This document shows, piece by piece, positions 6,771-54,059 of a stretch of 64,000 nt of DNA. Source of the stretch: Octopus vulgaris. Lineage: Eukaryota. The notes under the pieces are model-generated. The model was given only the letters and a program-made list of their open reading frames with translations, did not search any database and was not told the origin of the DNA. A program made the position numbers and the translations under genes. How positions within the stretch are numbered: the first letter of the stretch is position 1; each line of letters starts with the position of its first letter. The DNA lies in assembly GCA_951406725.2 (NCBI GenBank), contig OX597819.1, forward strand, positions 82,150,001 to 82,214,000, in the 5' to 3' direction.

Positions 6771-7143
6771 ACACACTAATACATACATATATACATATAT
6801 AAATATATGTATATATATATATATATATATATATATATACATATATTTATATATGTATTTATGTATGTATGTATCTAGATTTGGTAGATGGAATCTGTGT
6901 GGGTGCCCGTTGCGTATAAATACATACAGACTATACATGTGTATGTATGTATATATATATATATATATATATATATGTATATATATGTATATATATATAT
7001 ATATATATATATATATATATATATATATATATATATATATATATGTATATATATATATAGTGTGTGTGTGTGTGTACATATCTATGTCGTATATATAAAA
7101 GAAATTATTTTAGGATGAGATAAAAAACGAAGGCTGTGAATAG

Positions 7144-7191
7144 GTATTACAGCTGTTTCCAGGATATTTCTTATATCCCTTCATCGGAGAC
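7144..7191 (-). ncRNA. Minimal type-I hammerhead ribozyme motif (degenerate copy)
   Basis: Minus strand: GUCU CCGAUGA AG GGAUAU-aagaa-AUAUCC UG GAAA CAGCUG UA AUAC. Stem II is perfect, stem III is palindromic, U4 is C, and stem I has one mismatch. It sits in a ~150-bp island between (TA)n tracts. Confidence 0.65.
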
Positions 7192-7688
7192 GGTGTGAGA
7201 ATATGGTTAAGCAATATTTAGGTCTTACTGAAAACATTACCTCTGATAACCTATATATATATATATATATATATGTGTGTGTGTGTGTGTGTGTGTGTGT
7301 GTGTACACACACACGACAGGCATCCACACACACTCCTTCTACCAAATTCACTTGCAAGACATGGGTCGTCCGAGATATTTGGCCAAGAGATTGTGCAAAG
7401 TGAGCTTCTTAACCACAGTGTCATGTCTTTGCTCTACCAGAATATTCCTAAATTAAATGTTTAAAAGTGAAAGGAAAATTGTTGAAACGAGAAAATCTAA
7501 AGAAACATTTACGCGTGTGAAGATGTAGACAGGCAATTATGAGCTATTTTAAAGATAGTAATTGAAATTCAAAGAATTCGTAATTAATTACATTGAAAGA
7601 CTAACGTTTAAAGAATTCGTTTGTTTCACATTAATTCATATATTTACACATCAAAAAAGTTACTCGTAATTAAAGTCAATATCTATAA

Positions 7689-8020
7689 GGCACGGGTGTG
7701 GTTGTGTGGTTAAAAGATTGCTTTTCAACCATAAGATTCCAGGTTCAGTCCCGCTTCGTGGCAAAGCTTAGGCAGCTGTGAATTTGTTGACGGAAACTGA
7801 AAGCAATCCGTTATGTGTGTGTGTGTGTGTGTTTGTTTCCAACCGGTGTTGGTATGCTTAAGTCTTCGTGACTTAGCATTTCGGCAAAAGAAACTGATAG
7901 AATAAGTACTACACTTAAAGAAAATATAAGTACTGGGGTCGATTCATTCGACTAAAATTTCTTGAAAATTCTGCCCCAGCATAGCCGCAGTCTAATGATT
8001 GAAGCAAGTAAAAGATAAAA
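7689..8020 (+). mobile_element. tRNA-derived SINE family 1 (diverged)
   Basis: A-box-like TGGTTGTGTGG, B-box-like GGTTCAGTCCC, and body/tail homologous to 8248-8672. Confidence 0.85.
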
Positions 8021-8157
8021 GTTAGAATGTAGCATCTAAAGAACTATACGAAGTGAATTTTAACTGTAAACATATAAACCAAATAACATGCATCAGGATC
8101 AAGCTTCATCAGTAATATGACGCAATCTGTCATAAAAATCCTTTTGACTACAGATTC

Positions 8158-8760
8158 AAGGCCAGAAATTTGGGGAAGAAGCCGAGTCGATCACATCGAC
8201 CCAAGTGCTCAAGTGGTACTTTTTTCATCTACCCCTAAAAGATGAAAGGCGTAGGAGTGGCTGTGGTAAGTAGCTTCCTTACGAACCATATAGTTCCGGG
8301 TTCTGTCCCACTGCGTGGCACCTTGGGCAAGTGTCTTCTACTATGGCCTCGGGCCGACCAAAGTCTTGTGAGTGGATTTGGTAGACGGAAGCTGAAAGAA
8401 GCCCGTCGTGTATATGTATATATATATATGTATGTGTGTATGTGTTTGTGTGTCTGTGCCCCCCCCCCCCAAAAAATATATATCGCTTGACAACCGATTC
8501 TGGTGTGTTTACGTACCCGTAACGTAGCGGTTCGACAAAAGAGACCGATAGAATAAGTACTAGGCTTACAAAGAATAAGTCTTGAGGTCGATTTGCTCGA
8601 CTAAAGGCGGTGCTCCAGCATGGCCATAGTCAAATGACTGAAACAAGTAAGAGAGTAAAAGAGTAAAAGAGTAAAGTCGGTGGGATTTGAAGTCAGAATG
8701 TATAAACGAACGCAATGGATTAAGCGTTTTGTCCGGCGTTTCTACGAGTTAGTTGGCTTC
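8158..8760 (-). mobile_element. SINE family 2, split by a family 1 insertion
   Basis: Family-2 sequence ...gatgaaaggc|aaagtc...atttgaagtcagaa is interrupted at 8250/8673. Confidence 0.75.
8248..8672 (+). mobile_element. tRNA-derived SINE family 1, full length
   Basis: Head GGCGTAGGAGTGGCTGTGG...GGTTCTGTCCC, core ccttgggcaagtgtcttct, internal (TA/TG)n and (AAAGAGT)n tail; highly similar to 58408-58828. Confidence 0.92.
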
Positions 8761-51108: not shown

Positions 51109-51959
51109 CCAAGGGTACCCAAAAGCAACCGGAAACGTTCTCTGTGGAAAAAACCCGTTGAAGACACTTGATGCAACCCTCAGGAATCAGTCTGTCGACT
51201 GGTGTCGTCGAGTGAAGTCTTACTGCCACGTGAGACTTCTTTGTTTGGCGGTACTTCTCCCCTGTTCGTCCATTTTTGCTATGGCTGAAACGAAATGTTT
51301 TCTGCTGGGGAAAAACGGCGGCCGGAATACTTCTCATGCTTCAAACAGCTTACAAGGACGCTATCATGTGCAAAACACAAGTTTACGAGTGATTTCCACG
51401 CTTTGGAATAGTTACTTGTCGCTCGTGATTATTCCAGCCTCGTTCTGAACGATTGTCGACCAACTGAAGACATCAAGAAAATTCATAAACTGATCTTGGA
51501 AGACCGTCACCGAAAAATTCACGAGCCTGAGAATATGGCTAGTGTGTCCTGGAGTTCCTAGCAACGAATTTTGAGCGAAGAGTTGCGAATGTAAAGAGCT
51601 GCAGCAAAATTTGTGCCTCTCTTGCTCATGGAAGATAAAAAGCAGTCACGACTGAATGCGTGTCGTGAACTGAAGGAACAGTTGGAAGTGGAACCGGACC
51701 GGTTTTCGAAAGTCATCACAGGTGACTAAAGCTGGAGCTATGGAATTTGCAGATGTGGAAGGGGTGAAGAAAAACATGACGGAGGCTTTAAAACTCATTA
51801 CTTCGCAAGAGTCCAGCAGGGCTTCTAATAGTGGAAAACGAGCATGGACCATGCATTGCTTCAAATGGAGAATACTTCGAAGGCGATATAAGTGTAAACA
51901 TGTAAAACTAAGTGAATAAAATAATATTGCAAAATTCTGGTTTCTTCTGGGTAGCCCTC
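51109..51959 (+). mobile_element. mariner transposon, internally deleted
   Basis: TIR-like ends aagggtacccaaaagcaaccgg / ctggtttcttctgggtagccct; motifs KCFLLGK, LQTAYKD, LILEDR, AAKFVPLLL and FSKVITGD join directly to the C-terminal part ending ..GEYFEGD. Confidence 0.9.
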
Positions 51960-52064
51960 ACACATATATATATATATATATATATATATATATATATATA
52001 TATATATATGTATGGAAAAAAAGTCAAGATAGAAAATGCTAAAATAATTTTATAAAAAACATTT

Positions 52065-52099
52065 CAGTACCGGTTTCAGTTATTGTGATTTTTCAACTG
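52065..52099 (-). ncRNA. Minimal hammerhead-like motif, U3-A8 variant (decayed stem II)
   Basis: Minus strand: CAG UUGAAAA aucacaauaacu GAAA CCGG UA CUG, within a (TA)n-flanked island at 52013-52445. Confidence 0.55.
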
Positions 52100-52265
52100 T
52101 GACAATTAAACAATTAAATTTAGAAAAATTAAAAGAAAAGTTTTTTTAAAAGAATATTTGTATAGTGTTCAAATACAAGAAGTGGCATTTTCCTTGTTTC
52201 TGCCTGTCTCTGTCTCTCTTGTTTACTCTTGTGGGTTCGAGGTCGCTGTGAATTTTTGGTAGGGA

Positions 52266-52347
52266 TGAAGAAGAAGAAGAAGAAGAAGAAGAAGAAGAAG
52301 AAGAAGAAGAAGAAGAAGAAGAAGAAGAAGAAGAAGAAGAAGAAGAA
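52266..52347. repeat. (GAA)n microsatellite
   Basis: Directly visible. Confidence 0.95.
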
Positions 52348-54059
52348 TGTGGGAGTGCCATGTAATCTGTTGAATGGTCAGCTTCGCTGACCCCCCACAG
52401 TTGATGGTGGCAGTCGCTGTTCAATTCATGAAAATATTTCTTTTGAATATTTTGTTATGAAATTTGCGTATATATATATATATATATATATAGAGAGAGA
52501 GAGAGAGAGAGAGAGAGAGGAGGTGGGGGGAGAGAGAGAGATACATACATACATGCATATATATATATATATATATATATATATATATATATATATACAT
52601 GCATTCATACATACTTATATGCCTGTGTACGTATTCATGTATGTATGTATGTATGTATGTATGTATGTATGTATGTATGTATGTATATATATATATATAT
52701 ATATATATATATATATATATATATATATATTATATATATATATATATATAGAGAGTGGGGGGGGATCCTTTTCAGCTATTCACATTCTTACTCACAATTT
52801 TAGTATCAAGCTTTGACAATACCTCTCCACTTACCCTTTGTAATAAATTGAATAACTAAGTAACTACTCCAAAAGCTCTTAATATCAAAATTACTGCGGC
52901 TTAAACTTTCGTAGATTGGAAAGTTACGAATTTTTCTTGAAATAACAAATAACGCCGACATATCTATACATATACACATATACATATTCTTTCCACATGA
53001 ATGAAAAATGTTAAAACAAGGTAAAATAAGACAATTAAGGGATTAACCTAGAGCTGGTTATGAAGAGCAGGTCAAGGTTAAAGCCGTAAATATCAAAAAC
53101 GTCAGAAACTAAAATCAAAAAGGTACAGTGAATGCTCTGACTTCTATAAAAGGTCAATTTTGTTTTAGAGTTTTGATAAACAACGTGTCATCTGCTCGGG
53201 GGAAAGCTATATAGAAGTAGGCCTAATCTTCTGAATATTTTACAAAACATTGTAATATCATCTGGCTTTAAGTATCTTCAAGGGATAAATGGTTAAGATC
53301 GAATATACATTGATGTTTTCAAATAGATTAAACTCATTAATCAAACCAATAATATTTTTAAAGAAATAATAAGCATAGTTTTTAAAATATAAAATTTGAG
53401 ATTATATTTTTTTCTTTTTACTGCATAGCACTTCAGTATTTCATTTTATTATTTGATGGAGCATTTTCATATTTATTTCAAATATTTTTTCCTTTTAAAG
53501 ACTGATTGATTATTTCACAGTGACCTCTACGCTTATATATTACGTTTCAGACTAGTTCAAAAATGTTATCGAAACCGATTCAATTAAAACCGTCTTGATT
53601 TCAGTACACATAGACTGAAGAGAAAAATCGTAGGTAAAACTTATATCAATAGCTAAATATAATGTGATGCTAATCCTTAGTTAATACAACGGTGTAAGGC
53701 AATAGAGTTTGTATAAAACACATACTCCTTTGAGCGATATTCGCAAGTGGTAAAAGAAATATGCATTGTGTTCAGTAAGATATGTTTCAGCAAAACTAAA
53801 CTGAGATAAGTCACGTTCAGAGTTCAGGAATGTATACATAAAAACAATCATTCAATAAATATTGATTTATGTTACTGATTAGTAAATATCGAATAACATA
53901 TGAGTAAAATTGTATTTCGAAATGCATAGAATGTCTGAAAAATGCTGATTTCTTTTGAATAGCCGGAAATTTCCTCTGTTTTAGGGGAAAATAATAAATA
54001 AGTTGTAAAGTTCGTGTTTTATTAAGATATTAGCGAATATCAAATATTAAAAGTAAGAA

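Follow-up and report, generated by a model that had tools for sequence, protein, structure and literature searches.

A 64,000-nucleotide stretch of the Octopus vulgaris genome (assembly GCA_951406725.2, contig OX597819.1, positions 82,150,001 to 82,214,000; hereafter the window) contains seven hammerhead ribozyme motifs. Very probably they are minimal type-I hammerheads, each lying in the 3' terminal repeat of one of five repeat families with high copy numbers. Three of these families are tied to open reading frames (ORFs) of Penelope-like elements (PLEs) and the other two are likely to be of the same origin; the copies here are mostly decayed insertions into (TA)n or (TAA)n that lack their 5' parts. 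The motifs were placed by scanning the window for GAAA followed by a palindrome and UH, which matched five palindromes to seven sites. The GAAA of the CAGCUG family lies at 7159 on the minus strand, those of the CG family at 14615 and 38618 (both minus), that of the UA family at 32517 (plus), those of the CAUAUG family at 43889 (minus) and 46152 (plus), and that of the CCGG family at 52077 (minus). A BLAST comparison of the window with itself joined the two CG-family inserts (14451-14671 and 38452-38676, 74% identity) and, at 98%, the left and right arms of a palindrome 2.38 kb long (43831-46210) that carries the CAUAUG motifs. No other links between motif inserts were found in this comparison, so the count of five families is right. 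The original prediction of seven motifs from five unrelated families was thus borne out, and its three PLE ORF remnants (31306-32285 and 40659-40928 on the plus strand, 15776-16220 on the minus strand) were recovered. Six of the motifs lie, as it had claimed, in (TA)n-flanked inserts, five in number and bounded by TA runs.

Two of the seven copies are intact. The UA-family motif at 32488-32530 (plus) has a U3-A8 core with a predicted cut after 32524, and its element ends at (TAA)n; the CAUAUG motif at 46090-46167 (plus) has the canonical CUGAAGA/GAAA core with a predicted cut after 46163. The remaining copies have lost pairing relative to their families. Stem I is broken in the CAGCUG motif at 7144-7191 (minus; core CCGAUGA with U4C, insert 7097-7251 between TA runs) and in the CG motif at 14604-14639 (minus; Neptune-like PLE, core CUGUAGA with A6U, insert about 14558-14725). 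Stem II is broken by one change in the left-arm CAUAUG motif at 43874-43951 (minus) and is also broken in the CCGG motif at 52065-52099 (minus; U3-A8 core, insert 52014-52468 between TA runs). The second CG motif, at 38607-38642 (minus, insert 38511-38930), has lost several pairs, with mismatches in stems I and II and a palindrome changed from CG to CA. In alignments of the best loci of the five families (25, 25, 19, 19 and 30 loci), the family majorities fold as minimal hammerheads. The arrangement CUGANGA (or its U3-A8 form), GAAA and UH with stems I and II is present in these majorities and in two of the seven window copies. The U4C of the CAGCUG family and the A6U of the CG family are family-wide deviations.

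Matches across the genome were counted with a descriptor that allowed C3-G8 or U3-A8 and tolerated one deviation at position 4 or 6. This descriptor was passed by 14 of 25 CAGCUG loci and gave two matches in the window (32517 and 46152), compared with a mean of 0.0-0.3 and a maximum of two in shuffled windows (20 shuffles per setting). In a sample of 120 evenly spaced 10-kb stretches (1.2 Mb), 15, 24 or 37 palindromic matches were found, depending on stringency, versus zero to two in four shuffles, an excess over shuffled controls that agrees with the original prediction. When a palindrome was not demanded, 24 of 47 real matches were palindromic, compared with zero to two of five to nine shuffled ones, so the palindromic helix III is not an artefact of the descriptor; many of the non-palindromic matches are one change away from a palindrome. 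Extrapolation gives 35,000-86,000 motifs in the genome (Poisson limits 20,000-119,000, clustering ignored), consistent with the very large population that had been proposed. In the searched genome of 2.8 Gb in 227 contigs, each of the five families returned 807-1297 candidates at first look. The proposal that the window is typical held for descriptor-passing motifs (31 per Mb in the window, 12-31 per Mb in the sample) and failed for the five families themselves, which have 24 copies in the 1.2-Mb sample and seven in the 64 kb of the window, about five times denser (P=4e-4, for a window chosen after the fact). If the motifs were chance matches in low-complexity DNA, the failure of five of the seven window motifs to pass the descriptor would be accounted for. 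So would the Rfam scan of the window, in which no hammerhead was among the 150 of 246 matches listed (microsatellite-driven microRNA and small nucleolar RNA matches below gathering scores), and the single-copy folds, which were mostly no better than shuffles (z below -2 in one of seven motifs; 46090-46167 folds as a three-way junction, but at z=+1.09). We regard this reading as having a negligible probability. It is already refuted by the shuffle comparison and the family loci, because stems are restored in the family majorities, real matches exceed shuffled ones about tenfold or more, and the motifs stand at fixed distances from element ends.

The association with (TA)n that had been proposed was found for four of the families. 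Among loci chosen as best matches to the window copies, window copy included, (TA)4 occurred within 150 nucleotides of the 3' end in 29 of 30 CAUAUG, 20 of 25 CAGCUG, 23 of 25 CG and 23 of 25 CCGG loci. UA-family ends over the same distance had (TAA)3 in 23 of 25 loci and (TA)4 in one of 25, so the claim did not extend to this family; background frequencies were 17% and 5%. Unselected sample matches were also enriched near microsatellite (19 of 47 versus 12.6%, p=1.5e-6). The motifs lie beside the microsatellite and not within it, contrary to the suggestion of ribozymes hidden in masked microsatellite.

Linkage to PLE ORFs was found for the CAUAUG, CG and UA families, and a PLE origin is likely for the CAGCUG and CCGG families. 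The CAUAUG family forms the 3' end of a young PLE whose ORF has many copies 97-99% identical, several of them open for 842 amino acids. In the window, two 5'-truncated copies of the 3' untranslated region (UTR) of this element stand head to head with a 70-nucleotide tail (43831-46280), the 2.38-kb palindrome lying in (TA)n; similar head-to-head truncated copies occur in four of six other stretches examined. A full-length copy (L343) consists of the motif-bearing repeat with the 70-nucleotide tail, the 842-amino-acid ORF, and a second same-strand repeat with a decayed motif. Its ORF contains RW at 45 (RWA rather than RWK), DKT at 132, CNCRCASEC at 702, CQLC at 799 and CIH at 829, and the family thereby carries the Hydra-clade motif set of DKT, a CxCX5C linker, and CxxC and CxH around a C-terminal GIY-YIG. 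The intact Hydra-type ORFs of L343 and L344 (G000:C11, C4), with their many near-identical copies, were likely active recently. CG-family motifs lie downstream of ORFs with reverse transcriptase (RT), a Cys linker and GIY-YIG at two loci (L300, L206). In the window itself, the UA motif follows an ORF remnant with RT thumb, linker and GIY-YIG endonuclease (31306-32285, plus), which was identified by tblastn and a PF01541 match (E 4e-4) below the curated cut-off and has 3829 candidates at first look in the genome. Both the CG and UA families have a CX2-5CxxC linker before the C-terminal GIY-YIG and Pfam RVT_1 and GIY-YIG matches just under curated cut-offs. In a Pfam scan of 147 of the window's 421 stop-to-stop frames, the only match accepted was this GIY-YIG at 31830-32285, other weak matches being treated as chance. 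Two older remnants resemble the Hydra-type ORF, an RT remnant at 15776-16220 (minus; tblastn E 7e-5) and a GIY-YIG remnant at 40659-40928 (plus; E 3e-9 and 9e-8), behind which no hammerhead was found. Remnants around 19200-19500 and 23700-24100 gave weak matches to a non-LTR (non-long terminal repeat) protein of the restriction-like endonuclease (RLE) type (E 2e-3 and 4e-4) and were left out of the PLE count.

PLEs with a minimal type-I hammerhead at the 3' end form a class that has been described before (Cervera & de la Pena 2014, PMC4209133; Craig et al. 2021, PMC8557442); published work is compared here from the accessible portions of each source. Like the metazoan PLE hammerheads of PMC4209133, for which a dimer model was proposed, the octopus motifs have the type-I order and are mostly solo copies. 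They also share the extra nucleotide after A9, the palindromic helix III, U3-A8 cores, several families per genome and opposite-strand pairs reported there. They differ in the family-wide U4C and A6U cores and in the estimated 35,000-86,000 motifs versus 2,000-9,000 per genome in that work, two counts obtained with different descriptors. The short stem III also recalls the dimeric PLE hammerheads of Lunse, Weinberg & Breaker 2017, in which short stem III variants cleave as dimers (as cited in PMC6765202). The CAUAUG family resembles the Hydra-clade PLEs of PMC8557442 in its RW, DKT, CxCX5C, CxxC and CxH motifs and C-terminal GIY-YIG; it further shares with them a canonical hammerhead, insertion into (TA)n, truncated copies in inverted orientation and a tail. 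It differs in a 3' UTR that runs for about 1.7 kb before the hammerhead and in its many copies at 97-99% identity, several of which have open frames of 842 amino acids. An octopus element, Hydra-1_Obim, is listed there with a hammerhead, from which the CAUAUG-family hammerhead differs. The CG and UA families resemble the Neptune/Nematis PLEs of Craig 2021 in the Cys-rich linker before a C-terminal GIY-YIG and in microsatellite bias; unlike those elements, the UA family is tied to (TAA)n and not (TA)n, and its clade is assigned by motifs only. The window-scale pattern is genuine: it belongs to a known kind, here at high density, of which an octopus Hydra element has been tabulated before. The families or cores found here may likewise be listed in earlier supplements or in Lunse 2017. 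None of the seven motifs lies in the arrangement of non-LTR retrozymes, in which each tandem unit has a type-I hammerhead. Elsewhere in the genome, a retrozyme-like tandem array of units of about 357 nucleotides was observed (L156:2287-4533 in G000:C1:20000001-20010000), with a canonical-core CCGG hammerhead per unit, five units on one strand and two inverted.

Following the models in this literature, the two motif copies of a full-length transcript would base-pair at their palindromes and exchange strands of stem I, yielding a double hammerhead, with the element's protein probably assisting. Reverse transcription would then be primed in AT-rich repeats by the GIY-YIG/RT protein and leave truncated, tandem and inverted copies. 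Such self-pairing would require a palindrome, and the differences between the palindromes of sister families are consistent with CpG sites decaying symmetrically by way of G-U intermediates. For copies that are solo or inverted, as in the window, little or no cleavage is predicted. Several points weigh against the PLE-hammerhead interpretation. No partner ORF was found by tblastn for the CAGCUG and CCGG families, the Hydra and Neptune/Nematis assignments are motif-based and not tree-based, and the choice of loci biases the microsatellite counts. Some families may not cleave at all, because weak activity is to be expected from cores that carry U4C or A6U throughout a family (U4C and A6C passages in PMC3088659). 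Some monomer cleavage is possible at 46090-46167, because its six-nucleotide palindrome can close a 2-bp hairpin. CG-family catalysis may be relaxed despite its spread, because A6U occurs in ORF-linked copies and position 6 varies; U, C and A were observed there in the window motif at 14604-14639 and at L300, L206, L215 and L279. Variant cores in elements that are still spreading offer a natural set for asking whether cleavage persists, and the role of PLE hammerheads could be studied in the young Hydra-type element, whose ORFs are intact in some copies.

The original prediction had also proposed that distinct palindromes act as family-specific dimerization codes, that is, that they were selected to prevent ribozymes of different families from pairing. 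A total of 265 descriptor matches were collected over all loci, and 24 family representatives were picked by hand. One cluster lacking helix III, another of the hairpin type and one pair with no palindrome were dropped, CATGTG was represented by a CACGTG relative, two clusters were split, and two single loci were added. There is something to be said for a code: the 24 families have 16 distinct palindromes, the five in the window are mutually orthogonal in predicted duplex energy except for the very weak UA, sister families with cross-compatible stem I mostly differ in palindrome, and both helices are compatible in only one of 276 pairs. That single doubly compatible pair is close to the 0.5 expected under independence, however, and as stated the idea fails because 13 of the 24 families share a palindrome with another. 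Sharing occurs in 11 of 276 pairs, where random palindromes would give 4.3 and palindromes with a fixed first letter 9.6; it is thus at or above the chance level, and the palindromes have not spread apart. As we read the Forster model from its drawing in PMC4209133, the double-hammerhead geometry would swap stem I between partners as well. In 10 of the 11 pairs with a shared palindrome, stem I allows no more than one cross pair and so keeps the two families apart instead. CpG transitions separate the members of the sister pairs CGCG/CATG, CGATCG/CAATTG and CACGTG/CATATG, and CpG decay explains these differences. Single-step palindrome variants kept G-U pairing in 11 cases and broke it in two, which is only suggestive as three of the 11 are one subfamily. 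A selected code is thus improbable, and the specificity of families probably arises incidentally from the palindrome together with stem I. A literature search, with subscription papers outside its reach, found no paper on a heterodimer code. The at least 24 hammerhead families in this one genome form a natural set for testing partner choice in dimeric hammerheads. A further family (L328:988, L257:8077, L181:5356) has a small hairpin (CUCGGAG) in place of a palindromic helix III and is possibly monomer-competent.

It had further been proposed that the dispersed motifs are an active ribozyme population able to cut host intronic transcripts. The tens of thousands of fold-competent motifs estimated would favour this, as would the nine of 37 sample matches that have a same-strand partner inside their 10-kb stretch. 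The S-G-C motif described below, whose helix III has 5 bp, would not depend on a partner, and the reported depletion of retrozymes in Xenopus introns (bioRxiv 10.64898/2026.07.22.740005) favours some cost to the host. Against it, five of the seven window copies are broken and none of the seven has an intact same-strand partner: the CG copies are 24 kb apart and both broken, and the CAUAUG copies are on opposite strands. Cutting of host RNA by these seven is therefore unlikely. In the sample, 28 of 37 matches are solo (22) or have inverted partners only (six), and seven of the nine with same-strand partners belong to one array. A single minimal motif gave no detectable in vitro cleavage in PMC4209133. 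An anole PLE hammerhead required the protein of its element, and its site coincided with no RNA-seq read ends (PMC11167929). No host gene or exon was located in the window. Contigs from four presumed-RNA runs cover the CAUAUG end and the S-G-C repeat and are uninformative on ends or strand. We therefore consider a host-cutting population unlikely, if slightly less so than a selected code, and prefer the interpretation of the seven motifs as mostly decayed PLE termini.

A separate candidate, which the original prediction does not name, lies in a young non-coding element at 42487-43800 (plus strand), between TA runs, which has an 869-bp period, 443-bp direct repeats and 2142 candidates at first look. 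The core words of a non-circular (S-G-C) hammerhead occur at 42662-42723 (plus), with a predicted cut after 42667, and again 869 bp downstream on the same strand at 43531-43592. Helix III would be formed by 42662-66 and 42686-90, stem I by 42668-72 and 42707-11, and stem II by 42679-82 and 42720-23. GAAA precedes CUGAAGA at 42683 and 43552, the reverse of the block order of the other motifs; assignment to type I or II was rejected because no stem I was found in either order. An S-G-C scan of the window (stems of 5, 4 and 4+1 bp) returned both copies, with zero or one match in 10 shuffles; in the 1.2-Mb sample the same kind of scan gave one match versus three to five in shuffled sequence, and the scan alone is not specific. 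GUC, GAAA and CUGAAGA are largely conserved across two subfamilies (13 rows, 12 distinct). Stems I and III covary, with two two-sided changes in helix III and one in stem I, in two subfamilies only and with few independent events. In stems I and III, 98% of cells are paired, versus 43-57% when the strands are slid. Stem II is invariant, with 4 bp that include two G-U pairs, and two alternative 6-bp helices are more stable.

The motif resembles the type-SGC HRIMA-1 ribozymes (Eckert et al. 2023, PMC10085705), which cleaved in vitro, in its S-G-C order, 5-bp stem I, conserved core, short linker between stems I and II and full helix III. It differs in its ambiguous stem II and in its setting, a retroelement-like repeat in animal genomic DNA, where Eckert et al. 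reported mostly metatranscriptomes. On balance we lean, by a little, towards the view that this repeat carries an active non-circularly permuted hammerhead that would cleave without a partner, in monomeric form. A wiring known mainly from metatranscriptomes would then occur in a retroelement of an animal genome; with thousands of copies, and overlooked by standard descriptors, it would be the class here that could cut host transcripts. If it cleaves, it could explain PLEs reported with half cores only, and counts of ribozymes in animal genomes would have left out a class. Naiad_Ovul is marked HHR_half_core and (TA)n in Craig's table (PMC8557442), which serves as a lead only, no link to 42487-43800 having been made. 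No RT or endonuclease frame of the Naiad type (N-terminal GIY-YIG plus C-terminal RT) was found for the element. The 5' ends of the family did not cluster at the predicted cut, with only L339 starting near it, in a test biased by the selection of loci, which were picked for containing either the whole motif or the internal part. These 5' ends fall at many different positions, mostly abutting TA runs, which suggests that TA is a target site rather than a copied tail. Summed depth was highest in the 42664-42715 bin (X1, X7), which was not used as evidence, the core being common to related families. Presumed-RNA contigs over 42655-42720 show a further family with an S-G-C core and different flanks. 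No paper on S-G-C hammerheads in Penelope-like elements was found in the literature search, again with subscription papers outside it.

Other repeats were observed around these elements. A piece at 14780-14940 that adjoins the CG insert resembles the 3' end of another terminal-repeat family (72-74% to L049 and L282). Decayed RLE-type non-LTR remnants, presumably Dong/R4-like, lie at 18920-20740, between (TAA)n runs, and at 21300-25000. Decayed sequences at 27360-28560 and 51109-51963, the second between TA runs, look Tc1/mariner-like by eye and gave no Pfam match. Short inverted-repeat elements resembling miniature inverted-repeat transposable elements are present at 36854-37483, 29025-29392 and 48404-48762. 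At 60827-61312, a 186-bp tandem repeat (2.6 copies) consists of sequence that resembles a short interspersed nuclear element and is also dispersed in the window.

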